From: Candidatus Kuenenia stuttgartensis
GTDB lineage: Bacteria; Planctomycetota; Brocadiia; Brocadiales; Brocadiaceae
DNA: 32,000 bases
Reading direction: 5' to 3'
NCBI RefSeq assembly: GCF_900232105.1
Contig: NZ_LT934425.1
Location: forward strand, 3,330,001-3,362,000
Position 1 is the stretch's first letter. Every line of letters starts with the position of its first letter. Both the position numbers and the translations under genes were made by a program. Below are positions 3,224 through 29,324 of the stretch, piece after piece. The notes beneath the pieces are model-generated. The model was not told where the DNA came from. It ran no database searches and was given only the letters and a program-made list of their open reading frames with translations.

Positions 3224-4561
3224 ATGAAGAATATAGCAAAAAAATACAGCAAAAGACAACCGAAAATCAAGGCAGAGATGAGCGGGAAAGGCTTAACGGT
3301 ACATGCAGGGCTTTTACCGGTATTGAATTTTATGGGTAAGCTGATGTTCCGGGAGAGAGTCCATGAAGCGGTCCATAAGGATCGTGGAGCAAATGCCCGG
3401 TATCAGTTTGTCGATGCGGTACAAATGGTAGTGATAGGGTTGATAGCAGGGGCGACATCGATGGTAGAGGTGATGAAGGTGTGTACAGATGAGGTATTGA
3501 AGAAGATGTCCGGGTGGAAAGAGGTACCTGTAGATACTACGATAGGACGTATTATGAAGCTGGCGAGTCAGGGAGATATAGTGGAACTGACGGGGGTGAT
3601 CCACCGGTTTAGGGGAAAGATATGGAAGCGTGCGGTGAGATCAGGCCATAAACTCAGGAGTGCTCTTTGCGAAGTATGGATAGATGTTGATTCTACCGTA
3701 GATGGTGTATATGGGAAACAGGAGGGTGCAGAGGTAGGATATAATCCGCACAAGAAGGGGCAGAAGGCGTATCATTCCTTAATGGCATTTATTGCAGAAA
3801 CAAAGGAGGTATTACATAGTTGGTTCCGCTGTGGAAGCGCCTACACGAGTAACGGAGTAGTAGAGTTCATGAAGGAATGTATGGCGTACATGAATAAGGG
3901 GGTAAGGGTGGTATTTCGAGGAGACAGCGGTTTTTTTACCGGAGAATTACTTGAATACCTTGAGTCAATATTGGCGGGATATCTGATTAAGGTAAAGCTG
4001 AAGAATCTGGAAGGATTGCTTGAAGGGCAGAAATGGAATGAGGTGAAAGGGGAGCCAGGATGGGAACAGGCTGAATTTTGGTATCGATGTGCAGGGTGGG
4101 ATCGTGCGAGACGTTTTGTGGCAGTGCGGCAATTGGTCAAAAGAGAAAAGAAATTAGTAGAAGTGTCCGTGTATGAGTATTTTTGTTACGTTACAACGGA
4201 GCGGTTAAGTCCGATGGAAGCGCATCGTTGTTATGGAAAGAGGGCTACCTGCGAGACTTTGATAGAAGAGAGTAAAGGACAGATGAATGCGGGGCACATA
4301 CGTACGGGTGAATTTTTGGCCAATGCTGCGCTATTTCAGTGTGCGGTGTTAGCGTATAATCTTTTGAAGTGGATGGGATTGCTCAGTGGTGGAGTGATAC
4401 AAAAGTGGGAAGTAAAGACGATGAGACTGTGGTTAATCCGTGTGGCAGGGAAACTGGTGGAGAGAAGCCGGCAGATGACATTAAAATTGCCGGAGAAATT
4501 TCTCCATCAGGAGGAATGGGAAAAGTGGGAACGCATGTCACTGGATGTAGTTTTTCAGTAG
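3224..4561 (+). CDS. IS1380-family DDE transposase (445 aa)
   Basis: Motifs WIDVDSTVDGVYGKQEGAEVGYNPHKKGQKAYHSL, FRGDSGFF and the C-terminal ...ANAALFQCAVLAYNLLKW are typical of IS1380. A candidate imperfect IR is GGCGGTATATTGATAAC (about 3177) versus GTGGTAAGTATACCGCAG (about 4606-4623). Confidence 0.8.
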   Translation: MKNIAKKYSKRQPKIKAEMSGKGLTVHAGLLPVLNFMGKLMFRERVHEAVHKDRGANARYQFVDAVQMVVIGLIAGATSMVEVMKVCTDEVLKKMSGWKEVPVDTTIGRIMKLASQGDIVELTGVIHRFRGKIWKRAVRSGHKLRSALCEVWIDVDSTVDGVYGKQEGAEVGYNPHKKGQKAYHSLMAFIAETKEVLHSWFRCGSAYTSNGVVEFMKECMAYMNKGVRVVFRGDSGFFTGELLEYLESILAGYLIKVKLKNLEGLLEGQKWNEVKGEPGWEQAEFWYRCAGWDRARRFVAVRQLVKREKKLVEVSVYEYFCYVTTERLSPMEAHRCYGKRATCETLIEESKGQMNAGHIRTGEFLANAALFQCAVLAYNLLKWMGLLSGGVIQKWEVKTMRLWLIRVAGKLVERSRQMTLKLPEKFLHQEEWEKWERMSLDVVFQ

Positions 4562-4956: not shown

Positions 4957-5442
4957 ATGGATATATATGAATTTGCAATGCAGATGGAAAAAGACGGTGA
5001 AAAGTATTACCGTGATTCGGTCCAAAAAATTAACAACGCAGGGCTTAAAAACATACTGTGTCTACTGGCAGATGCTGAAGTGAAGCATTACAATATTCTT
5101 CAGAAAATGAAAGAAAATGAAAAAATTCACATGTCTGATACACAATTATTATCAAACGTAAAAAATATATTTATACAAATGAAAGAAGAGAAAGACACAT
5201 TCGGTGTTACTATCTCGCAAATAGATTTATATAAAAAGGCTCAGGATATTGAGAAAAAGAGCAAAGAATTTTATTTAGAAAAAGCGGAGGAAGTAAAAGA
5301 CCAATCTCGAAGATCACTATTTTTGAAGATTGCAGAGGAAGAAAAAAAACACTATTCAATACTGGAAAACATAATCAATTTCGTATCCCGACCGCAGAAT
5401 TGGCTTGAAAATGCCGAGTGGTTCCATTTGGAAGAATATTGA
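4957..5442 (+). CDS. Rubrerythrin/ferritin-like diiron-fold protein (161 aa, no rubredoxin domain)
   Basis: Two-fold repeat of E...(A)EE.KH helices (LADAEVKHY ... IAEEEKKHY). RBS-like aaggggaataagaaaATG. Confidence 0.7.
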   Translation: MDIYEFAMQMEKDGEKYYRDSVQKINNAGLKNILCLLADAEVKHYNILQKMKENEKIHMSDTQLLSNVKNIFIQMKEEKDTFGVTISQIDLYKKAQDIEKKSKEFYLEKAEEVKDQSRRSLFLKIAEEEKKHYSILENIINFVSRPQNWLENAEWFHLEEY

Positions 5443-5880: not shown

Positions 5881-6150
5881 ATATTTCCTGCGAACTATGC
5901 AAGCATCGGAACTGGGTGCAGCCCAATGGCAAACATAAAGAATACGCAGCACTGGGAGTATCTCTTCCATCACTATCACTACCTCGGCAATCCCCGGCTT
6001 GTTGGCGAACACCTCAGACACATCGTACGTATCGGCAATCAGGTTGTTGCCTGCCTGGGGTGGGCAAGCGCCGTATGGAAGGTCAAAGACCGTGATCGTC
6101 TCATTGAATGGGATGAGACTACTAAACCGTACGCACTTAGGCACTGTCCA
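5881..6150 (+). pseudogene. DUF4338-like (DruA-type) domain fragment, truncated at both sides
   Basis: ...WEYLFHHYHYLGNPRLVGEHLRHIVRIGNQVVACLGWASAVWKVKDRDRLIEWDE parallels residues ...WRSMLEAHHYLGSGPLCGAQLRYLVRSEYYGWIGGLSYSACARRVESRDEWIGWTE of the 12872-15064 protein. Confidence 0.55.
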
Positions 6151-6175
6151 AAAATAATTTGGTATTTTTATTAAT

Positions 6176-6838
6176 TTAGTTAAGTGAAATTGTATAATTC
6201 CAATCTGGCAAGACACTGTGTTTGTTTATGTTTATTTCTTTCATTTGGTCATCAGTGATTTTGATTCCTTTTTGGTATTCTTTCTCGTTAAGAATGGTTT
6301 GTACGAGAAGACCCGCTGTTGTTGTAGTGCCAGCAATTAAACTTAGCATAACATCATAAGACCTCAAAGGATTCCCCTCCCAATTTTTACTGATAAAACT
6401 AAACAGACGATGTTCTACCGGATTCCATTTTGATGCTCCTGAGGGATAGTGGCAAATCCTGATGGAGAGTCCGTAAACTTTACAAATATTTTGATAAAGC
6501 GCATATTTCCACAACCGGGGACGAAATCCGTTGCTCCCTCCTGCGTCACAAAGAATAAGGAGTTCTTTTGCGCATGGATACCTCTTCCAACCAAATTCAT
6601 CCAGCCAAATCTTAATTGACTCGACTGCAAATTCCGGTGTGTCATAGGACGTACCAACAATAACTGTCCCTAAATTAGTCAGCAATTCATAGATACCAAA
6701 CGGACATCCAACACCAATTGCCTGAGAACGAAAATCATGGGCCAAAACTTCATTTACTATTTTTGTCCACGCCTTGCCCTCATTTCTGAAATTACCTATC
6801 AATTCCTTTTTCTTACTGTCAACACTGATTATTGGCAC
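6176..6838 (-). pseudogene. ISAzo13-family (Rhodopirellula-type DDE) transposase, C-terminal ~220 aa only
   Basis: ISVDSKKKELIGNFRNEGKAW ... CDAGGSNG ... HYPSGASKWNPVEHRLFS motifs. There is a stop just upstream of the first homologous residues, and the N-terminal half is absent. Confidence 0.75.
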
Positions 6839-7712: not shown

Positions 7713-8054
7713 ATGATGCTGCTACGTCTTAGAATAAATGCTCCAAAAATGCCCAATTAGTCTCAGAATATTTGAGTCTAATACCCAGCAAATGATTTGA
7801 AAAATCTTACCCAGCTACCCCGCCTTTTTTTTATCCTGCGTAAGTATTTCACTTGATTTTTTGTTCACGTTAAGAAAAATACATCGTTTACCCCGTTAGA
7901 AAGAAGTTCCGTCCGTAAGGCGGAGTAAAGCCTCATTAAATAGTTTGGAAGGGGTTAAAACCACTTCCAAACTTCCTAACGGCGGTTTACTTCCCAGTTC
8001 CCCGTTTTCACGAGGACAAGTTTTGTAAGATTTTTCCGGAACATAAAAAACTCA

Positions 8055-8096
8055 GGGCAGGAGGACCGAACGTTGGGAAACTTCATCCTCCTGCCC
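8055..8096 (+). promoter_or_regulatory. 11-bp perfect stem hairpin (GGGCAGGAGGA / TCCTCCTGCCC, 20-nt loop) about 15 nt upstream of the RBS of the first transposon gene
   Basis: The stem contains an SD-like AGGAGG and an anti-SD-like CCUCCU. The true RBS AAGGAGG lies about 15 nt downstream, so alternative pairing is possible. Confidence 0.35.
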
Positions 8097-8125
8097 ATTT
8101 CCCCCCTATACAAAGGAGGCAGTGC

Positions 8126-8764
8126 GTGAATATTATAGAAAAAATCCACAAGCATGAAAAGCTTATTGCGACAAAACAGAAGCCATGCTTTTGTCCAAAG
8201 TGCAAGAGTACCCATGTCAATTTCACCCTTCATGAATGCAGATATCGGTTGTTTCACGTTATTATCGACTCCCTTGTTCATACGATAGAATCTTTCCTGG
8301 GACGTTGGAAATGTTCCTTGTGCAAGAAGACGTTTACTTCCTATCCTGAGTATGCGCTCCCTTACAAGCGGTACGTAAAGGATCACTGTCTCTCCTTCAG
8401 TCAGGCTTATGTCAAAGATGATACAGAAACCTACCGGAGTGTCTCCTCTGCCATCGGATATACTACCCGAACACAGGAAATAGACAACCGCATGCTTGCC
8501 TGGTCAACCGTTTGGAGGTGGCTGCGTTTCTTTGGCTCACTGAAATACACACTCCGCAACGCCTTTGACCTCATCAGGCAGGCCGACCCCAACTCTCCGG
8601 TTTTTCGCCAAATGTTTCCCATTTACCACGGAAAGTATAAAAGCAAACAACGAAAAACCTCCCTCGATCAATCGATTCAATTGTTCAGCGCCGAGCCGGA
8701 ATATCACCGAATTTTTGGGCATTCATTTTTCCCCGAACTGGCAACAAAAAGCGGCTGGTCTTGA
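8126..8764 (+). CDS. Transposon-encoded zinc-ribbon protein (212 aa, GTG start), function unknown
   Basis: CFCPKCKSTH...HEC and CSLCKK motifs. Preceded by caaaggaggcagtgcGTG. First gene of the element. Confidence 0.65.
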   Translation: MNIIEKIHKHEKLIATKQKPCFCPKCKSTHVNFTLHECRYRLFHVIIDSLVHTIESFLGRWKCSLCKKTFTSYPEYALPYKRYVKDHCLSFSQAYVKDDTETYRSVSSAIGYTTRTQEIDNRMLAWSTVWRWLRFFGSLKYTLRNAFDLIRQADPNSPVFRQMFPIYHGKYKSKQRKTSLDQSIQLFSAEPEYHRIFGHSFFPELATKSGWS

Positions 8765-8802
8765 GTTACAATCACCTCCACACTTAAAAAAGGAGGTGAA
8801 TT

Positions 8803-9255
8803 ATGAAATCGAAAGACGAAAAATGGGCTTTATTCTGGTGCAATCTTCTGCATCCTGTCATCTTCGGTGAGATTGAGAAGGAGCAGACCAACCTTTTTCT
8901 GAAAAAACTCTGCCTTCAGGAGGTCGTATTCCCCAACGGAAAGCGGAAAAGACCCACTATCTCTACCCTCAGGAGAAAACTCAACCGCTACCGCAAAGAT
9001 GGATTTCAATCTCTTGCAAGAAAGGCGAGGAGCGACCGTGGCGCATCCAGAAGGTTTTCTCCTGAAATTATCGACAAAGCCGTTGAACTCAAAAAAGAAC
9101 AACCACGCCGCAGCGACGATTGCCTCAACCGCTTTCTTGAGAAATACTATGGGAAAACGATCCCCAAATCCACCCTCTACCGCCATCTCAGACTCGCAGG
9201 GGCGACCCGGCTCAAACTCGGCGTCTCACAGCAAAAGGTGCGTATACGCTCTTAG
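8803..9255 (+). CDS. Transposase N-terminal HTH/DNA-binding segment (150 aa), ends at TAG 9253-9255
   Basis: RBS aaaggaggtgaattATG. RSDRGASRRFSPEIIDKAVELKKEQPRRS...IPKSTLYRHL resembles the MuA/TnsB/TniA N-terminal HTH region. Confidence 0.7.
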   Translation: MKSKDEKWALFWCNLLHPVIFGEIEKEQTNLFLKKLCLQEVVFPNGKRKRPTISTLRRKLNRYRKDGFQSLARKARSDRGASRRFSPEIIDKAVELKKEQPRRSDDCLNRFLEKYYGKTIPKSTLYRHLRLAGATRLKLGVSQQKVRIRS

Positions 9256-10363
9256 CCGTGAGCATACCCACGACCTCTGGATTGGCGACTTCCAGGAAGG
9301 CCCTTTCGTGCTCGTTGACGGCGAGGCGCTTCCCACAAACCTCTGTCTCTTTATCGACTGCTACAGCCGTTATGTGGTCGAAGGACGGTATTATCTCAAA
9401 CAAACCCTCGATATCCTTATCGATTCTCTCATCAGGGCCTGGACTATCCACGGCTCGCCCAAAGAACTCTACCTCGACAATGCCAAGGTCTACCACTCTG
9501 ACGCCCTGCGCTCTGCCTGTTACAACCTCGGCATTAAACTCATCCACAGACCACCACGCGACCCTGCTCCCGGCGGACTGGTCGAACGTTTCTTCGGCAC
9601 CAGCCAGACACAGTTCGAGTCGGAAGTCCGCTCCGGCGACATTATCACCCTTGATGCCATTAACCAGGCCTTCTCCGCTTACCTTGCCGTTGTCTATCAC
9701 GCAAGAATCCACTCCGAAACCAATCAATCTCCAAAACAACGCTACGACGAGGGGCTTACCGTCATCCGACACGTCGATATGGACGCCGCTCTTGCCTTCT
9801 TCATGAAACGCATCCCCAGAACCGTTGACAGAACCTTTGCCGATGTCCGCATTGATAACCGCTTTTACCGTGTTGACCCCAAACTCAGAGGCGATAAAGT
9901 AGAAGTCCGTTACGACCCATACGGCGATCTCAAAAAGGTCTTGATCTATTCCGCAAACGGTGAATACCTCGGCTCGGGAAATCTCTACCTGCGCGACCAG
10001 GGCGCTGAAACTCCAGCCGCCTCACCTTCAAAACCAAAACATAATTACCTCGACCTTATCACTCAGAAACACAAATCCATTCTCCAGGCTCAGGCCAAAG
10101 GCATTGATTACCACCAAATCATCTCCGAACGACCCTGGCCATTCATGGCATTCGTCCAGAAACTCGCACTCCTCATGGGACACAAAGGCTCTCTCTCCGC
10201 CTTCAGCTCTCATGAACTCGAATCGCTTAAAAAATGCTACAACCGTATCCCCGCTCTCAACGAATCATTGCTCACGGAGGCATTCCAAAATGCCTCCGTG
10301 AAAACCTTACCCTATATCATTCGTGAATTACAAATCGCTTACTCGAAAAAGGAGGTCTCTTAA
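8999..10363 (+). CDS. Transposase catalytic segment (rve DDE core plus Mu-transposase C-terminal domain); meaningful sequence starts at about 9240 in the +1 frame relative to 8803-9255
   Basis: DLWIGDF (D), LYLDNAKVYHS (D) and GGLVERFF (E), then ...IHSETNQSPKQRY and RIDNRFYRVD...VEVRYDP. The first ~80 codons of the listed ORF are low-complexity overlap with the HTH frame. Confidence 0.8.
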   Translation: MDFNLLQERRGATVAHPEGFLLKLSTKPLNSKKNNHAAATIASTAFLRNTMGKRSPNPPSTAISDSQGRPGSNSASHSKRCVYALSREHTHDLWIGDFQEGPFVLVDGEALPTNLCLFIDCYSRYVVEGRYYLKQTLDILIDSLIRAWTIHGSPKELYLDNAKVYHSDALRSACYNLGIKLIHRPPRDPAPGGLVERFFGTSQTQFESEVRSGDIITLDAINQAFSAYLAVVYHARIHSETNQSPKQRYDEGLTVIRHVDMDAALAFFMKRIPRTVDRTFADVRIDNRFYRVDPKLRGDKVEVRYDPYGDLKKVLIYSANGEYLGSGNLYLRDQGAETPAASPSKPKHNYLDLITQKHKSILQAQAKGIDYHQIISERPWPFMAFVQKLALLMGHKGSLSAFSSHELESLKKCYNRIPALNESLLTEAFQNASVKTLPYIIRELQIAYSKKEVS

Positions 10364-10365
10364 CC

Positions 10366-11157
10366 ATGTTTACTTCTCATTTTTCCATGACTACTCAGCC
10401 GTTCTCTGAAAGAATCAACACCAGCCTTATCATGAAAGACGAACGCTTTACCCAGGGGCTTGCACGACTCCAATACCTCTTACACTCAGGCTCTATCGCC
10501 GTCCTCTACGGACAGACGGGAGTCGGAAAATCCACACTCCTCAAACTCTTCCTCTCACAAATCCCCCAAAACCTGTTTCTCCCCATCTACCTCCATTTTA
10601 CCCACCTAAAATCATCCAGCCTTCTCTCCTTAATCGTCTCCCAGCTCGGTGAAATACCAAAACACACCAAAGACCGGCTCTTCCTCCAAATTATGGATAA
10701 ATCCTTGCGCTCAAATCTCACTCCCATTATCGTTATCGACGAGGCTCATCTCCTGAAAACCGACGCCATCACAGACCTCAGACTCCTTGTCAGCTCTCCG
10801 CTTGATTCTTCCACTCATCTCAAAATCATCCTCTCGGGACAGGAACACCTCAAATATATCCTCAAAAGAGACATCCATGCCGACTTCGCACAACGCATCT
10901 CGGTACATTACCACATTCATCCCCTTACTAAAACTCAAACCGCTGCATACATAGACTTCCATCTGAAATCTTCCGGCGCATCCGATAAAATCTTTGACTC
11001 AGACGTCAAAGACCTGATCCATGAGTTCTCCGCCGGCATCCCAAGGCAAATCAACGCCATTTCCACCGCCTGCCTGATTAACGCTTCCATCAGACAATCA
11101 CAGAAAATTACCCAGGATATCTTCCATCAGGCTCTTGCTGAAATTCAATCTTTTTAA
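10366..11157 (+). CDS. AAA+ ATPase, TniB/TnsC/MuB-like (ExeA-type) transposition regulator (263 aa)
   Basis: Walker A GQTGVGKST and Walker B IVIDEAH. Starts 2 nt after the transposase stop. Confidence 0.8.
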   Translation: MFTSHFSMTTQPFSERINTSLIMKDERFTQGLARLQYLLHSGSIAVLYGQTGVGKSTLLKLFLSQIPQNLFLPIYLHFTHLKSSSLLSLIVSQLGEIPKHTKDRLFLQIMDKSLRSNLTPIIVIDEAHLLKTDAITDLRLLVSSPLDSSTHLKIILSGQEHLKYILKRDIHADFAQRISVHYHIHPLTKTQTAAYIDFHLKSSGASDKIFDSDVKDLIHEFSAGIPRQINAISTACLINASIRQSQKITQDIFHQALAEIQSF

Positions 11158-11509: not shown

Positions 11510-12149
11510 ATGATGCCTCCTTTAATGCTTCCTCATCTCTCTCTATCTTTAGCGTCCTATCCTCTTCTTTTATCTGCACCCACCCATCAAGTTTCAATCT
11601 CGTTAGCCTTTCCCTTGTTGTTTCCAGGGCCTTCGATACTGACGACTTAGGATGTTCCTTCAGATAACTGTTCTTCTTCACGATGTATTTCTCTATACTC
11701 TGTAATTTTGATACACGGGTCTTTGACATCTCTTCCGCCCTTACCGGATTGCGCCTCAGAATATATCGAACCTCATCATCCTTTATCTCGCAGAGCTTTT
11801 CTTCGAACAATCCTAATTGCAGTATCCCTTTATTTATCAACGACTCTATCTGCGGCTTAGTTATCGCCGTTATGTAATGAAACCCTTCCGGTAAACTTTC
11901 GATTTGCACCGTCTTGATCATCCCACGATCTCCTACAATCGTTACATCTTTGCATCCAAACCGCTCTAATACCTTCTTTACCTGAGATTCAAAGGTCTTC
12001 GGATCCTGGGTGTTGCCCCTAAATACTTCTGTTGATACCGGCTCCCCGGATTCATCACAAAGCATACCGATCACTATCTGTTTTTTCCTCTTTTTGCCGT
12101 CACGATTATACCCGTACTCACCAAAATGATTCGACTTCCCCTCTAAATA
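11510..12149 (-). pseudogene. IS1634 no. 1 transposase, middle fragment
   Basis: YLEGKSNHFGEYGYNRDGKKRKKQIVIGMLCDESGEPVSTEVFRGNTQD...VGDRGMI...EALKEAS. Confidence 0.8.
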
Positions 12150-12161
12150 TAGTCAAACAAA

Positions 12162-12702
12162 TCAGGTTTTCGAAATTTGCTCGCCAATAATTTGAAAATT
12201 TTCAGTTAAAAGAGTAGACAATTCATCTGTATACTCGTTAATATTTTTGAAAAAACTTAAACATTTGTTTTTAAACTTCTCATAAGTATCATAATACTTG
12301 TTATACAATATTTTTTTGCGAAAGAATTTCCATAATCTTTCAATGAGATTTAAATTGGGTGAATAGGAAGGGAGAAATTTGATCTTTATTCTCGAATTTG
12401 CAAGGTATTCTTTGACCAACTTAGACCTGTAATATTTAGCATTATCAGAGATTATGTAAATAGTACCGGCTTGAGCATACCTTGACTCTATTTCATGGAA
12501 AAGCTTTATTGTTGATTGAGCATTGATGCTTTCATCTTCCCGGATTGTTACTTCAAAGGTTTCTATGTCAATAGCACCGTTTAAATTTATTCTTTTCCTG
12601 CCGGTATTAGAGGGTATTTCCTTCTTTTTGCCTTTCTCTATCCAGCAATATGCAGACGTAGAATTGTGCTGTGGATGAACTCCATCCATAAAAAGTATCT
12701 TA
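12162..12702 (-). pseudogene. IS630 copy 1 transposase, C-terminal half
   Basis: KILFMDGVHPQHNSTS... is identical to residues 168-345 of the intact copy except the last residue (T versus I). Confidence 0.85.
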
Positions 12703-12812
12703 TAGCCAAACAAATATGATTTTAGAGATTTGGCGATAAAATGGCTTTCTAAAAAACAGATTTATTTGACTAGGCATATTATCAAACACACCCCTAAATC
12801 CCCTCTTGATAG

Positions 12813-15113
12813 CTGGGGATGACCCATATTTTTTGCTGGACACCGTGTTAACCGTATGTTACACTGTGTACATGCTTAGAGTAGGAGGTCGAATATTTTC
12901 AGATGATGTAATAAAGCGTTTATCAGAAACTATCCAAAAGGAACCGTGCCTATCGCGTCGTAAACTGTCGCGTCTGGTATGCGAATGGATGGACTGGCGG
13001 AATCAAGCGGGCCGTTTGCAAGAGATGAGTTGTCGCAAGGCGTTGTTGGAATTGGATCGTCGTAAAGAGATCAATCTTCCAAAGGTGAACAGGCATTATG
13101 CATTTCAAAAAGTCAATAAACCTGCGGAGGCGCCTCCGATTGCGGAAGTGTCATGCGAGCTAGCGGAGTTGGGTGACGTAGAGATTATACGGGTTACAAC
13201 GAGATTCCATTCGAAACTTTGGCGTAGCATGTTAGAAGCGCATCATTATCTTGGAAGTGGGCCCCTATGCGGGGCGCAACTTCGGTATCTTGTACGCAGT
13301 GAATATTACGGATGGATAGGAGGGCTAAGTTATAGTGCCTGTGCCAGACGGGTGGAAAGTCGCGACGAGTGGATAGGATGGACGGAGGAAGCACGTAAGC
13401 GGAATCATACGTTTGTTATCAATAACAGTCGGTATTTAATAGCGCCTACGGTAAGAGTAAAATGTTTGGCATCGCATGTATTGGCAAAATGCCAAACACG
13501 TTTGGTAGATGATTGGGAAAGAGTGTATAAATATCGTCCTGTACTTTTAGAAACCTATGTGGAACGAGGACGGTTTTCCGGAAGCTGTTATCGGGCAGCT
13601 AACTGGAAGTATGTAGGAGGCACGGAAGGTCGAGGACGAAAAGGAACAGGTGCAACGGTCAAAGACGTTTATGTTATGCCGTTGCAAAAGAAATGGCAGG
13701 CGGTGTTGTGTTGTTGTGCCGATGGCAAAGTACATGTTCGCCAAAGAGTGGCACAAAAAGAGCCTCGGGATTGGATAGAAGCGGAACTTGGAGGAACAAA
13801 ATTGGGCGATGCACGATTGACCTCAAGACTTTTAGAAATGACAGGTATGTTTTATGACAAACCTTTGGCAAACATTCCGCAGGCGTGCGGCTCAGTCAGT
13901 GCGACTAAGGCTGCATACCGATTCCTTGACAATGAGAATGTAGATTGGAAGGCGATATTGCAAGCTCATTATGAGGCCACGGAAGAGCGTGTGAAGGAGA
14001 ATAGTTTGGTTTTGGTAGCGCAAGATACTACGACTCTGAATTATAGCACACATCCGAATACGCAGGGGTTAGGGCCGATAGGTACTAAGAGTAAAAAAGT
14101 TCGTGGACTGATGGTGCATGATACGATGGCGTTTACTGAAAGTGGCACACCCTTGGGACTTCTGAATGTGCAATGCTGGGCGCGGGACGGAATAGGCAGC
14201 AAACATAAACGACACAAGAAGCCTATCGAAGAGAAGGAAAGCTGGAAATGGGTGGAGAGTTACCATGCAGTATCGCAAGTACAGAAACGCTGTCGAAACA
14301 AATCTTTGCTGGTGGTTGTGGCAGATCGTGAGGCCGATATTCACGAGGTATTCGCTGAGCAGTATAATACGCCTGATGGCGCTCAGTTGCTGATCCGTGC
14401 AGAACGTTCGCGCAATAGAAAGGTTGTTGATGATAAAGAATCATGCGAGTTTTTGTGGACTAAACTGGAACAGCAACCGGCGATGCCTGTTACGCTACGC
14501 CCACCTATGCTAAAAAAGAATATGCCTGCGGTCAGGGTGTGGGCGGTGCTGGCGCAGGAAGTCAATCCGCCTATCGGAATTGATGGGTTAGAATGGATGC
14601 TGTTAACCACAGTTGCGGTTAAGCAAGAAAAAGATGCTTACGAACGTTTGGAATGGTATGCTCGCCGATGGGGTATTGAGTGTTATCATCGTATTATCAA
14701 GAGCGGTTGTCGTGTCGAGGCCCGGCAGTTGGAGAGTGCTCGTCGTCTATGCAACGCTTTGGCCATTGATATGATTATAGCTTGGCGTATCCATTACCTG
14801 ACTACTTTAGGACAAGAAACACCTGATGTCCCTTGTACTGTCTACTTCAGCGATTCTGAATGGAAAGCATTGACAACTTTTGCGAACAAGGTCAAGGAGC
14901 CTCCTGATTTACCTCCAAGCCTCAATGATGCCGTGCGGCTTTTAGGTAAACTTGGCGGTCATCTGGGTCGCCGTGGTGATGGCCATCCCGGAAGTGAAGT
15001 ACTTTGGCGAGGCATGTCACGTTTGGCTGATATTGAAGTTGCTTACGAACTTTACACCACTTAGCCTTCAGCTCAATTGGCCGTACAACTACGGTGCTCT
15101 TGAAATTTGTGGG
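12813..15113 (+). mobile_element. IS4/Tn5-like insertion sequence (2301 bp) with 8-bp duplication CTTGATAG
   Basis: CTTGATAG at 12805-12812 and 15114-15121. Weak IR CTGGGGATGACCCATATTT versus CTAATCTTTACCCACAAATTT. Confidence 0.7.
12872..15064 (+). CDS. Fusion protein: N-terminal DUF4338 (DruA-type) domain plus Tn5/IS4-type DDE transposase (730 aa from ATG 12872)
   Basis: N-terminal part: HHYLG, LRYLV, INNSRYLI, LLETYVERGRFSGSCYRAANWKYVGGTEGRGRKG. C-terminal part: LGDARLTSRL, AYRFLDN, LVAQDTTTLNY, VADREADI, YARRWGIECYHR, VLWRGMSRLADIE. The track ORF start (12806) lies outside the IS end, so ATG 12872 is preferred. Confidence 0.75.
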   Translation: MLRVGGRIFSDDVIKRLSETIQKEPCLSRRKLSRLVCEWMDWRNQAGRLQEMSCRKALLELDRRKEINLPKVNRHYAFQKVNKPAEAPPIAEVSCELAELGDVEIIRVTTRFHSKLWRSMLEAHHYLGSGPLCGAQLRYLVRSEYYGWIGGLSYSACARRVESRDEWIGWTEEARKRNHTFVINNSRYLIAPTVRVKCLASHVLAKCQTRLVDDWERVYKYRPVLLETYVERGRFSGSCYRAANWKYVGGTEGRGRKGTGATVKDVYVMPLQKKWQAVLCCCADGKVHVRQRVAQKEPRDWIEAELGGTKLGDARLTSRLLEMTGMFYDKPLANIPQACGSVSATKAAYRFLDNENVDWKAILQAHYEATEERVKENSLVLVAQDTTTLNYSTHPNTQGLGPIGTKSKKVRGLMVHDTMAFTESGTPLGLLNVQCWARDGIGSKHKRHKKPIEEKESWKWVESYHAVSQVQKRCRNKSLLVVVADREADIHEVFAEQYNTPDGAQLLIRAERSRNRKVVDDKESCEFLWTKLEQQPAMPVTLRPPMLKKNMPAVRVWAVLAQEVNPPIGIDGLEWMLLTTVAVKQEKDAYERLEWYARRWGIECYHRIIKSGCRVEARQLESARRLCNALAIDMIIAWRIHYLTTLGQETPDVPCTVYFSDSEWKALTTFANKVKEPPDLPPSLNDAVRLLGKLGGHLGRRGDGHPGSEVLWRGMSRLADIEVAYELYTT

Positions 15114-15210
15114 TAAAGATTAGCTTGATAGAGGGGACTTCTTATCTCCCCCCTAAAAAGAGGGGCCGGGGGTGTGTAAATTTTTCGAAAACCTTATTTG
15201 TTTGACTATA

Positions 15211-15707
15211 TCTCCAGGGGCTTTCTCTTCTTTGAGTTGTTTGTAGTTTTCGATAAATTCTTTTTGTTTTTCAGGGTTTGCTTTGCCTGGAACTATTGTG
15301 GTTTTCTTGTAAGTAAAGCCTAATCTATCGAGGGTATGTACCATTCCTTCGGGTGTATAGGTCTTATTGAATGTCTGTTTTACATATTCAACAATTTCTT
15401 TTGCCGCGCTATAGTTGTTTTTCCTGATATGATCTTTTAATTGTTCTTCTTGTTCGCAAGTGAGTTTTGGCATACAGCCAACATAATTGTCAGATAAAAG
15501 CCCGTCGAAACCTTTATCTTTGTATAGTTTTTCGTAATTCCTGATTGTTTGATCGTCTAACAAGAGCGCTTCTGCTACTTCTTCATAACTCCATCCTGAA
15601 TCAAGAAGAAGTATAGCTTTGATTCGGTCGGCATGACGTCTATGAGGCTCTTTCTTATGTGCTTTTTTAAATTCTATTCGGGTTTTTTCACTGAGAAATG
15701 GATTCAT
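15211..15707 (-). pseudogene. IS630 copy 1 transposase, N-terminal half
   Basis: MNPFLSEKTRIEFKKAHKKEPHRRHADRIKAILLLDSGWSYEEV... matches the intact copy up to ...EEKAPGD. Confidence 0.85.
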
Positions 15708-15783
15708 GCAGAATTTAATACTCTAGAAACAATTCAAATGCAAGAAAAAAACAGGTTCTTCTAAAAATAAATGCTTTTTGCTA

Positions 15784-16364
15784 TAACTGCTCGTCACGTC
15801 ATACAAAAACAACTTCGGCTTATTGCCTCCTCGTCTTAACTCAAACAGCTTTCGCTCTATCTTTGCCTGATTCTCTGACAACCATGACAAATTATCGTAC
15901 AGATTGTTCTCGTCAAACCCACGCTTCATATCCAGGACGTCACCCGCAGCATGTATCTGCGCCAGCCTTACTGCAGACAGTCTTGACCCCTGGCCTATTA
16001 CCCTTGCCATTACTTGCCAAAGCGCCAGCTTTCCTTCAAAGTCCTTTCCCAATGCCTCTTCTATCCCTAATTCCTTTGCCACTTGGTACACGCTCCACGC
16101 TGCTCCCACAGACAAACCCTCATGGAGTTTCACCGATTCTGACAATGCGCCCAATGCACAGAGATCGTCTTTATGTGCGAGTGCAAGTCTTATCGCTTCA
16201 ATCTCCAGGGGAGTGCAATTCGACAGATTCGCAATGGTGCGTTTCTTGACCTTCCCATCCTCACGGTACGATTCCCGCAGAAGGGTAGATCGATAGATTT
16301 TTTTACCGGATTTTGACTTGTTCTCTACAATATGCATGTCCACCATTGTACAGATAACAACCAT
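15784..16364 (-). pseudogene. IS1634 no. 1 transposase, N-terminal fragment
   Basis: ...MHIVENKSKSGKKIYRSTLLRESYREDGKVKKRTIANLSN...KLFLYDVTSSY, broken at the IS630 TA insertion site. Confidence 0.8.
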
Positions 16365-27917: not shown

Positions 27918-27972
27918 AAAGACAATTATAGCCATAGGGAAGTGGCCGATTATTTTGGGCGGCATTATTCTA

Positions 27973-29098
27973 TAGTCAAATAAATCAGATTTTCGAAATT
28001 TGCTCGCCAATAATTTGAAAATTTTCAGTTAAAAGAGTAGACAATTCATCTGTATACTCGTTAATATTTTTGAAAAAACTTAAACATTTGTTTTTAAACT
28101 TCTCATAAGTATCATAATACTTGTTATACAATATTTTTTTGCGAAAGAATTTCCATAATCTTTCAATGAGATTTAAATTGGGTGAATAGGAAGGGAGAAA
28201 TTTGATCTTTATTCTCGAATTTGCAAGGTATTCTTTGACCAACTTAGACCTGTAATATTTAGCATTATCAGAGATTATGTAAATAGTACCGGCTTGAGCA
28301 TACCTTGACTCTATTTCATGGAAAAGCTTTATTGTTGATTGAGCATTGATGCTTTCATCTTCCCGGATTGTTACTTCAAAGGTTTCTATGTCAATAGCAC
28401 CGTTTAAATTTATTCTTTTCCTGCCGGTATTAGAGGGTATTTCCTTCTTTTTGCCTTTCTCTATCCAGCAATATGCAGACGTAGAATTGTGCTGTGGATG
28501 AACTCCATCCATAAAAAGTATCTTATCTCCGGGGGCTTTCTCTTCTTTGAGTTGTTTGTATTTTTCGACAAATTCTTTTTGTTTTTCAGGGTTTGCCTTG
28601 CATGGAACTATTGTAGTTTTCTTGTAAGTAAAGCCTAATCTATCGAGGGTATGTACCATTCCTTCGGGTGTATAGATTTTATTGAATGTCTGTTTTACAT
28701 ATTCAACAATTTCTTTTGCCGCGCTATAGTTGTTTTTCCTGATATGATCTTTTAATTGTTCTTCTTGTTCGCAGGTGAGTTTTGGCACACAGCCAATATA
28801 ATTGTCAGATAAAAGCCCGTCAAAACCTTTATCTTTGTATAGTTTTTCGTAATTCCTGATTGTTTGATCGTCTAACAAGAGCGCCTCTGCTACTTCTTCA
28901 TAACTCCATCCTGAATCAAGAAGAAGTATAGCTTTGATTCGGTCGGCATGACGTCTATGAGGCTCTTTCTTATGTGCTTTTTTAAATTCTATTCGGGTTT
29001 TTTCACTGAGAAATGGATTCATGCAGAATTTAATACTCTAGAAACAATTCAAATGCAAGAAAAAAACAGATTTTTATAAAAATAAATGCTTTTTACTA
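27973..29098 (-). mobile_element. IS630-family element copy 2, intact (1126 bp), TA duplication
   Basis: TA at 27971-27972 and 29099-29100. Ends TAGTCAAATAAATCAG... and ...GCTTTTTACTA. Confidence 0.85.
27985..29022 (-). CDS. IS630-family transposase (345 aa)
   Basis: N-terminal HTH (ADRIKAILLLDSGWSYEEVAEALLLDDQTIRNY) and DDE region (LFMDGVHPQHN ... IISDNAKYY ... NLIERLW). Confidence 0.9.
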   Translation of the reverse strand: MNPFLSEKTRIEFKKAHKKEPHRRHADRIKAILLLDSGWSYEEVAEALLLDDQTIRNYEKLYKDKGFDGLLSDNYIGCVPKLTCEQEEQLKDHIRKNNYSAAKEIVEYVKQTFNKIYTPEGMVHTLDRLGFTYKKTTIVPCKANPEKQKEFVEKYKQLKEEKAPGDKILFMDGVHPQHNSTSAYCWIEKGKKKEIPSNTGRKRINLNGAIDIETFEVTIREDESINAQSTIKLFHEIESRYAQAGTIYIISDNAKYYRSKLVKEYLANSRIKIKFLPSYSPNLNLIERLWKFFRKKILYNKYYDTYEKFKNKCLSFFKNINEYTDELSTLLTENFQIIGEQISKI

Positions 29099-29324
29099 TA
29101 TCATAAGTAGATCGTTAAAAAGGAATCAACTTCAATAGCAAGAATAAAGACCCGACCCTAGGACTTAGTCTGTTCTATTTAAAGGTTATTTTGCGTTGCC
29201 TAGCATCAAAAAAGCCAAACCTTTTGTGGCAAAACAATGTACAAAATAATACCGGAAGTAATTATTTACTTTATGTTTGAATATTTGGGTATTCGATACC
29301 TCTGGCGAAAGATTCGGCCACTTA

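Follow-up and report, generated by a model that had tools for sequence, protein, structure and literature searches.

Tn5-type transposases are among the best understood, and we know of none that carries an enzyme of a second kind. The Tn5/IS50 transposase (IS4 family; 1MUH, 1MM8 and 4DM0) consists of an N-terminal DNA-binding domain, a DDE catalytic core with a Y-R-E-K signature, and a C-terminal dimerization domain. Two other described systems bear on the locus presented here. Mu is a transposable phage. Its Mom protein (PF25680; 8BV8) is a GNAT with Gly-tRNA(Gly) as donor, and it modifies adenines at N6 in double-stranded DNA, which it binds in a positively charged cleft; a helix-turn-helix (HTH)-like insertion at residues ~175-209 is essential for its activity, as are residues W48, H58, Y59, R111, S124, D149, R151 and Y159 (PMC13219725; residue numbers there are those of the Mom translation used here plus 10). 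The other is type I Druantia, whose DruA protein contains the domain DUF4338 (PF14236). In a 32,000-nt stretch of the Candidatus Kuenenia stuttgartensis genome (contig NZ_LT934425.1, forward-strand positions 3,330,001 to 3,362,000; hereafter the window), we find at 12813-15123 one copy of a single-gene insertion sequence (IS) of the IS4 family, Tn5/IS50-like branch. Its transposase has all three domains of the Tn5 enzyme, including the Y-R-E-K signature, and in addition an N-terminal extension of ~295 amino acids (aa) for which Tn5 has no counterpart. This extension contains DUF4338, which we argue is a working part of the transposase and may be an active enzyme of the Mom type. The gene is laid out as follows:

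12872..15064, + strand: transposase open reading frame, 730 aa (open reading frame and family start methionine)
12872..13066, + strand: small N-terminal domain, aa 1-65, with two short strands and three helices (AlphaFold models, pLDDT 88-90)
13142..13696, + strand: GNAT-fold core of DUF4338, aa ~91-275 (Pfam, model, Foldseek against the PDB, Mom cross-matches, hhalign, conservation)
13769..13942, + strand: Tn5-type N-terminal DNA-binding domain, aa 300-357 (PF14706; alignment of the homolog P0007 to Tn5 from residue 10)
13943..14773, + strand: DDE catalytic core, with D385 at 14024-14026, D485 at 14324-14326 and E603 at 14678-14680 (motif positions, Tn5 alignment of P0007, transpos_IS4_3)
14480..14481, + strand: junction of a 75-bp in-frame deletion, 25 conserved aa lost (121-protein alignment; the 75 bp are intact in the related copy L045)
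14774..15028, + strand: Tn5-type dimerization domain, aa 635-719 (PF02281)

The initial annotation of this gene, made from the sequence alone, had placed a DUF4338 domain at its N-terminus and taken the rest for a complete Tn5-type transposase. The first of these assignments was borne out by a Pfam profile search, in which DUF4338/DruA matches aa 67-256 with an E-value of 1.1e-35 and a score of 123.7 bits (cutoff 27). The same search finds Tnp_DNA_bind (PF14706) at aa 300-357 (E 9e-18), Dimer_Tnp_Tn5 (PF02281) at aa 635-719 (E 1.7e-15) and a weak match to DDE_Tnp_1 (PF01609), and the NCBIfam model transpos_IS4_3 scores 360 bits, with a cutoff of 160. The catalytic triad (D385, D485 and E603) and the signature Y596-R599-E603-K610 are kept, and residues 299-667 of an intact homolog (P0007) align to Tn5 transposase residues 10-366 with an E-value of 1e-35. 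The Tn5-type DNA-binding, DDE and dimerization domains are thus all present, but the copy is not complete, since the catalytic core has suffered the 75-bp deletion. The gene start is set by alignment: the methionine at 12872 agrees with the family consensus M-[IV]-T-[IV]-G-G. Upstream in-frame TTG starts (12806 and 12833) had been considered because homologs are ~753 aa long; they were rejected once the alignment fixed the ATG at 12872 as the family start, and the 23-aa shortfall was traced instead to the internal deletion.

The architecture is that of a large family. A search of 5.8 billion proteins returned more than 6000 homologs; the best 120, from which architecture, alignment and conservation were taken (121 sequences with the window protein), are 63-96% identical to it and ~753 aa long, and all combine DUF4338, Tnp_DNA_bind and the Tn5-dimerization domain. 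These 120 come from Planctomycetota, Chloroflexota, Acidobacteriota, and Gamma- and Deltaproteobacteria, and those that are named are called "IS4 family transposase". Three apparent "DruA-only" proteins were looked up, and all three proved to be decayed fusions with DDE and Tn5-dimerization fragments downstream; standalone DUF4338 was accordingly dropped as a separate class, except for genes of ~296 aa in Desulfobacterales, which are truly separate. Tn5-like relatives that lack the extension also exist (L007, 443 aa, and L029, 451 aa; 29-35% identity), which argues that one branch acquired the domain and has retained it since. In the 121 fused proteins, conservation averaged over alignment columns is 0.82 in the GNAT core and 0.81 in the DDE core, with 0.89 in the DNA-binding domain, 0.845 in the dimerization domain and 0.63-0.66 in the linkers. 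We also note a 97%-identical transposase fragment at the end of a contig binned as Microthrixaceae (L005). The LeuRS of the window turns up only on contigs of 2-5 kb (55 index blocks of the assembly collection; L048, GCA_023384235.1), as would be expected of a host whose many repeats make its genome hard to assemble.

The domain recurs with other transposases. In an exhaustive HMMER scan of 1.84 billion cluster representatives, the N-terminal 290 aa found 6761 relatives at E<=1e-3, of which 3259 also reach E<=1e-10. Besides the Tn5-type fusions, DUF4338 stands at the C-terminus of IS66-family transposases (P0440, P0471 and P0420), at the N-terminus of an IS4_1-type transposase (P0496), and at the N-terminus of a protein annotated "ISAs1 family transposase" on a Thiodictyon plasmid (L043, 4001-5335). 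In Desulfobacterales, the stop codon of the separate ~296-aa DUF4338 gene abuts remnants of an ISKra4 transposase (L015 and L016; NF033572, E 5e-51; L016 1471-3500), and another Thiodictyon plasmid (L042) carries a separate DUF4338 gene and a Tn5-like transposase gene without the N-terminus, with a nested IS91 between them. At least four other DDE transposase families (ISAs1, IS4_1-type, IS66 and ISKra4-adjacent) appear to have been joined to the domain in independent events. Because it was captured repeatedly, at either terminus, by transposases with different ends, we take it to render a general service to DDE transposition and not to recognize one specific end sequence; and because it is both conserved like the DDE core and joined independently to other DDE families, we infer that it is a working part of the transposase, not cargo or a fossil. 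Two further architectures, a DruA domain with DUF6788 and a DruA domain with MORN repeats (P0459 and P0445), were also seen.

Structure prediction indicates what kind of domain this is. The AlphaFold prediction for aa 1-295, for which 40 relatives were aligned, reaches a pLDDT of 90.2. It gives the DUF4338 core a GNAT acyltransferase fold, with a small domain of three helices in front of it. Against the PDB, Foldseek gave 203 matches at E<=1e-3. Nearly all of the 50 matches listed are proteins annotated as acetyltransferases, and phage Mu Mom (8bv8_B, E 7e-7) heads the ranking, ahead of RimI, SpeG and TmcA; Naa60 matches as well. The Aravind group likewise calls DUF4338 a GNAT domain (PMC10853773), in agreement with the fold search. 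TmcA, a tRNA cytidine acetyltransferase (2ZPA; E 4e-5), and FemX and TacT, which have been discussed alongside Mom, are nucleic-acid GNATs that show no sequence-level kinship with DUF4338 and occur in other domain contexts. Searching the DUF4338 profile against PDB sequences yielded nothing relevant. The N-terminal domain (75 aa) was also modeled a second time (pLDDT 88); a PDB fold search with it found no significant match, the best (E 0.4-3) being Lrp/AsnC winged-helix, paired and homeodomain proteins; only the first ~65 aa, as modeled, could be HTH-like and bind DNA. In addition, several phage proteins of 400-700 aa labeled "homing endonuclease" or "endonuclease-like" in BFVD have a domain matching the DUF4338 model at E ~1e-5 (I7KLM9, A0A4Y5JUX8, A0A8S5QH23 and others); these may be another such GNAT joined to a mobile-element nuclease.

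Among solved structures, Mom matches the N-terminal model best, and sequence comparison points in the same direction. The Pfam Mom profile (PF25680) matches 12 of the 40 aligned DUF4338 family members at E<0.1 (best 7e-6), and two relatives narrowly pass its cutoff of 27.1 bits (L016, 27.3 bits; P0486, 27.6 bits). An hhalign comparison of the DUF4338 and Mom alignments gave an E-value of 0.007 over 49 columns, pairing NLASHVL with NSESRAIS and ETFVD..RF.GTCYRAANW..VG with QSFADERCGR.GVVYQASNF.YVG, so that the two families have in common the pattern [EQ][ST]F[VA]D...G..Y.A.N[WF]..[VI]G and an N-x-x-S helix start. The conserved residues of the GNAT core are W117, H125, Y126, R187, S201 (nt 13472-13474), E231, R234, Y240 and N244; among the 121 fused transposases, conservation is 98-100% at W117, H125, Y126, R187, S201, E231 (which is D in other clades), R232/R234 and Y240. 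We propose that these are the putative counterparts of Mom's essential residues, in an alignment of low confidence in which R111 and R187 were paired by eye. Both Mom and the DUF4338 fusion belong to transposing elements, Mom as a free-standing protein and DUF4338 as a domain fused to the transposase.

The reading that we favor is that DUF4338 acts as a Mom-like accessory enzyme of DDE transposases, to which we assign a probability of about one half. Since the nearest solved relative is Mom and the residues at the proposed positions of Mom's essential residues are nearly invariant, the GNAT domain is, as judged from model and alignment, most likely a catalytically active, Mom-type acyl- or aminoacyl-transferase. 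Anchored beside the transposon ends through the DNA-binding domains of the transposase, it would acylate or aminoacylate DNA or a partner bound to DNA, either at the ends or the target or close to them, and the resulting covalent mark might regulate or protect transposition, much as Dam adenine methylation controls Tn5 and IS10. Because of that precedent, an adenine modifier encoded by the element itself would have an obvious use, although this is speculation.

Several observations weigh against a Mom-like enzyme. Mom's lead over ordinary GNATs in the Foldseek comparison is modest (E 7e-7 versus ~2e-5; TM-score 0.59 by target length). The hhalign probability for the Mom alignments is 1-6%, the window protein itself does not match PF25680 at E<=0.1, and a narrow, Mu-type Mom hidden Markov model barely detects the DUF4338 family, matching a 25-residue motif only. 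The GNAT loop Q/RxxGxG/A is non-standard: the window protein reads R195-V-K-C-L-A200 there (by eye), and the wider-family consensus at this pyrophosphate loop is x-V-P-N-L-A, with the glycine replaced and the last alanine kept. When the model was viewed without residue-level superposition, there was no obvious counterpart of Mom's HTH-like insertion after the last GNAT strands; where Mom has this internal insertion, the DUF4338 protein has its N-terminal helical domain. Finally, a role in ligand sensing or protein binding would be compatible with the conserved polar residues as well.

The initial annotation had offered a different function, namely that DUF4338 is a nucleic-acid-binding or end-recognition module shared between transposons and a defense system. 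Its association with transposons holds, and extends to other transposase families; the core, however, is an enzyme fold of the GNAT type, not a known DNA-binding fold. As an alternative to a Mom-like enzyme, a non-catalytic module of this sort would give the transposase extra grip on its ends or targets and do the same job in DruA. The best structural neighbors of the three-helix ~65 aa, non-significant as they are, are HTH DNA-binding domains; Mom itself binds double-stranded DNA in its cleft; the canonical GNAT cofactor loop is degenerate; and insertions in the window, L003 and L047 lie at the centers of GC-rich palindromes, which could reflect targeting. Protein A-Tn5 and similar engineered N-terminal fusions do redirect Tn5. 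Yet the most conserved residues are polar and fall at Mom's essential catalytic positions, a Tn5-type end-binding domain is already intact at aa 300-357, and the domain is found at either end of unrelated transposases with different terminal repeats. We therefore regard a pure binding module as unlikely. Given the GNAT fold, Mom as top match and the conserved polar residues at Mom's essential positions, a role as an enzyme seems more likely than a purely DNA-binding one.

It is similarly doubtful that the domain is a protein acetyltransferase that tunes transposition by acting on the transposase itself or on a host nucleoid or repair protein. Most of the matching solved GNATs are protein or small-molecule N-acetyltransferases (RimI, SpeG and Naa60), and a conservation equal to that of the catalytic core would be in keeping with such an activity; against it, the closest solved and sequence relative, Mom, acts on DNA with a tRNA-borne donor, and the acetyl-CoA pyrophosphate loop has no glycines.

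A more specific form of the Mom-like enzyme, which we consider a long shot, is that DUF4338 is an active nucleobase modifier with an aminoacyl-tRNA or acyl-CoA donor, by which DDE transposases of several families mark their ends, the donor site or the target, and that DruA is correspondingly a DNA-modifying module of type I Druantia. If this were so, transposition would have a self-encoded epigenetic switch or an anti-restriction coat, which would resemble the Dam control of Tn5 and IS10 without depending on the host. DruM is a methyltransferase that belongs to type II Druantia, and DruA would fill the corresponding place in type I, as a self-marking or sensing module. A domain that modifies DNA as Mom does would thus add a new layer of transposon self-regulation or protection, and would supply a testable hypothesis for DruA.

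That the gene is instead a Druantia-type defense component, or defense cargo of the IS, is very improbable, and was rejected on the PADLOC results and the contexts of the relatives. The idea owes something to names: the Pfam family is called "Druantia protein DruA", and a 314-aa fragment that is 69% identical to the transposase N-terminus (P0125) is named "Druantia anti-phage system protein DruA, partial" by NCBI. The latter looks like name propagation, and the Pfam name on IS fragments will inflate Druantia counts in surveys that rely on it. PADLOC's DruA models (PDLC00001 and PDLC00002) do not match the N-terminal domain at E<=1, or the full window protein at E<=0.1, and give weak partial matches to other IS-linked DUF4338 proteins (E 3e-8 to 9e-4). 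These models have 407 and 675 positions, compared with ~280 aa in the window protein, where the domain is covalently part of a transposase and lies in an IS context rather than a defense operon. There are no druB-E genes in the window or beside the relatives; the neighbors in the window are an IS630, a miniature inverted-repeat transposable element (MITE) and other IS fragments. The link to DruA drawn in the initial annotation therefore stands as far as the common Pfam domain, but as distant homology only: the window domain is a distant homolog of DruA, not a Druantia component. A preprint on YprA and Druantia does not discuss DruA, and we found no account of the role of DruA within Druantia in the searchable literature.

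Least of all, an accidental chimera, in which a deletion in this genome joined a DUF4338 gene to a Tn5-type transposase gene, might be entertained because this window, with its many broken genes, is an IS graveyard and this copy has an internal deletion, but it is vanishingly improbable and was rejected, since the best 120 of the more than 6000 homologs, across many phyla, have the same architecture and length, the family makes bounded insertions with target duplications, and the deletion sits inside the transposase core and not at the domain junction; the fusion is genuine.

What the locus offers is therefore not the copy itself, an ordinary and defective instance of an architecture that is already visible in domain databases, with thousands of annotated IS4 transposases, but the recurrence at family level, which is undescribed in the searchable literature. 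Thousands of Tn5-like transposases have a conserved GNAT domain of the Mom/DruA type, which appears useful to DDE transposition in general. Literature that mentions DUF4338 contained nothing on transposases, no work combining Druantia, Mom and GNAT was found, and a search for "Mom-like" with transposase brought up only an unrelated result; nor did we find a paper on the fusion, on its recurrence across transposase families, or on a link between Mom and DruA.

The boundaries of the element were fixed by aligning its flanks with those of relatives from public genomes and metagenomes (L002, L003, L004, L045 and L046), together with an end-finding script, and both ends, with their inverted repeats, could be defined in this way:

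12805..12812, no strand: left copy of the target-site duplication, CTTGATAG (read from the sequence; borders by alignment to relatives)
12813..12846, + strand: left terminal inverted repeat, CTGGGGATGACCCATATTTTTTGCTGGACACCGT, beginning CTG as in Tn5 (conserved in L002, L004, L045 and L046)
12837..12865, + strand: promoter-like site, TGGACA-17 nt-TACACT with TG before the second hexamer, 6 nt upstream of the ATG (consensus scan, 9/12 matches)
15090..15123, - strand: right terminal inverted repeat, minus-strand reading CTAATCTTTACCCACAAATTTCAAGAGCACCGTA (alignment to relatives and end-finding script)
15124..15131, no strand: right copy of the target-site duplication, CTTGATAG (read from the sequence; end-finding script)

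The earlier description of a bounded IS with an 8-bp duplication was right about the duplication, which is present on both flanks, and slightly off in the length, which is 2311 bp (12813-15123) and not 2301 bp. Intact copies of the family are ~2386 bp long, with imperfect terminal repeats of ~22-33 bp whose first bases are CTG; the family is thus a single 2.39-kb IS, whereas Tn5 is a composite transposon. In the window element, the left end begins CTGGGGATGACCCATATTTTTTGCTGGACAC and the right end, read inward, CTAATCTTTACCCACAAATTTC; the two agree in the pattern CTGnnnnTTACCCnCAnnTTTT. The match is imperfect: the left end has CTG..., and the right end has CTA... in place of the family's CTG. 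Since the near-identical and intact L045 carries the same CTA, this is a trait of the lineage, and its interpretation as a sign of decay was rejected. Target duplications of 9 bp, as in Tn5, are found in relatives (CCCACTGGG in L003 and GGAATCAGG in L046), whereas the window copy matches over 8 bp only. Family insertions with target duplications occur in unrelated genes, and in L046 the IS cleanly splits an FtsX/MacB gene.

Within the left end, CTGGACAC and TA..CT are invariant columns in the alignment of relatives, and the separate DUF4338 genes in L013-L021 have a comparable TGGACA-17-TATGGA on their upstream side. The conserved CTGGACAC was considered as a binding site of the extra domain and set aside for a simpler reading, in which it is the -35 box of a conserved promoter. 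The position of this putative promoter suggests that the transposase mRNA may be leaderless or nearly so.

Some features of the insertion sites deserve mention. Several insertions lie at the centers of GC-rich palindromes: CCCCT-CTTGATAG-AGGGG in the window (12800-12817 / 15124-15136), and CCCTCG-CCCACTGGG-AGAGGG in L003 (around 1440-1500 and 3756-3800); in L047, the flanks (2890-2945 and 5325-5400) are ~60-nt mutual inverted repeats without a clean duplication. The family may thus prefer hairpin or cruciform centers, or MITEs, as targets, with three or four cases to go by and L046 lacking an obvious palindrome. L045 (330-365 and 2750-2762) has no matching target duplication, its left flank reading ...TATTTGGAG and its right flank CACCAACGG..., which may be due to recombination between copies or to chimeric assembly across the repeat; on the left it is flanked by a palindromic repeat that resembles the window MITE.

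The deletion is peculiar to the window copy. The 25-aa segment VIGTREILIPPSEKRAARQATLAVR is absent after aa 536 in this protein alone (1 of the 121 aligned), and corresponds approximately to Tn5 residues 232-262, in the part of the core that separates the second D of the triad from the E. On the metagenome contig L045, a copy that is 99.8% identical in DNA has the 75 bp intact at 2032-2106, and look-ups with three choices of start found no other record of the exact deleted protein. Because a segment between the second D and the E has been lost, the window copy is probably catalytically inactive and unable to transpose by itself; its ends could still be used in trans.

The IS is the innermost of three nested elements, and the window also holds a second DUF4338 sequence:

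12148..15785, - strand: IS630-family element (12148-12703 + 15209-15785), split by the MITE and so by the IS (97-99.6% identity to an intact copy)
12704..15208, no strand: MITE-like element of 194 nt (12704-12812 + 15124-15208), into which the IS inserted (empty site given by the intact IS630 copy)
5881..6174, + strand: independent DUF4338 relic, of which only the HHYLG...RD.W.GW part remains (PF14236 match at 5926-6174)

An intact IS630 copy at 27971-29100, whose open reading frame has DDE_3 and HTH domains, serves as the empty-site reference. The MITE has inverted repeats at 12701-12726 and 15185-15210, with a TA(T) overlap at its borders, and the IS struck its central palindrome, CCCCT-CTTGATAG-AGGGG. 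The order of events is that the MITE inserted into the IS630, then the IS into the MITE, and later the 75 bp were lost in frame. With its borders, target duplication and nested insertion, the fusion gene belongs, as had been supposed, to a mobile unit, one that is mobile now or was formerly.

The relic, too, had been noted in the initial annotation as a second, independent DUF4338, and is real: PF14236 matches 5926-6174 on the + strand with an E-value of 3.9e-10 and 39.8 bits over profile positions 61-129. Its 3' side is cut by an ISAzo13-type transposase gene (6176-6838, minus strand; PF07592, E 3e-79). In tblastn comparisons of this region, the window transposase found no match and L016-type DUF4338 proteins gave an E-value of 5e-7, which places the relic in a different DUF4338 clade.

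The window as a whole is rich in IS fragments and broken genes. A perfect (100%) inverted duplication of 2159 bp, at 1-2159 and 7718-9876, brackets the segment 2160-7717, which holds an IS4-type transposase gene, a gene for a small helical protein, the DUF4338 relic and the ISAzo13 transposase gene; this arrangement might represent a composite structure, an intermediate of inversion or an artifact of assembly. Further along lies a Mu/Tn7-like pair of genes. The first (8999-10363), whose 5' part falls within the inverted duplication, encodes a transposase that has rve and Mu-transpos_C domains, and the second (10366-11157) encodes an AAA_22 ATPase.

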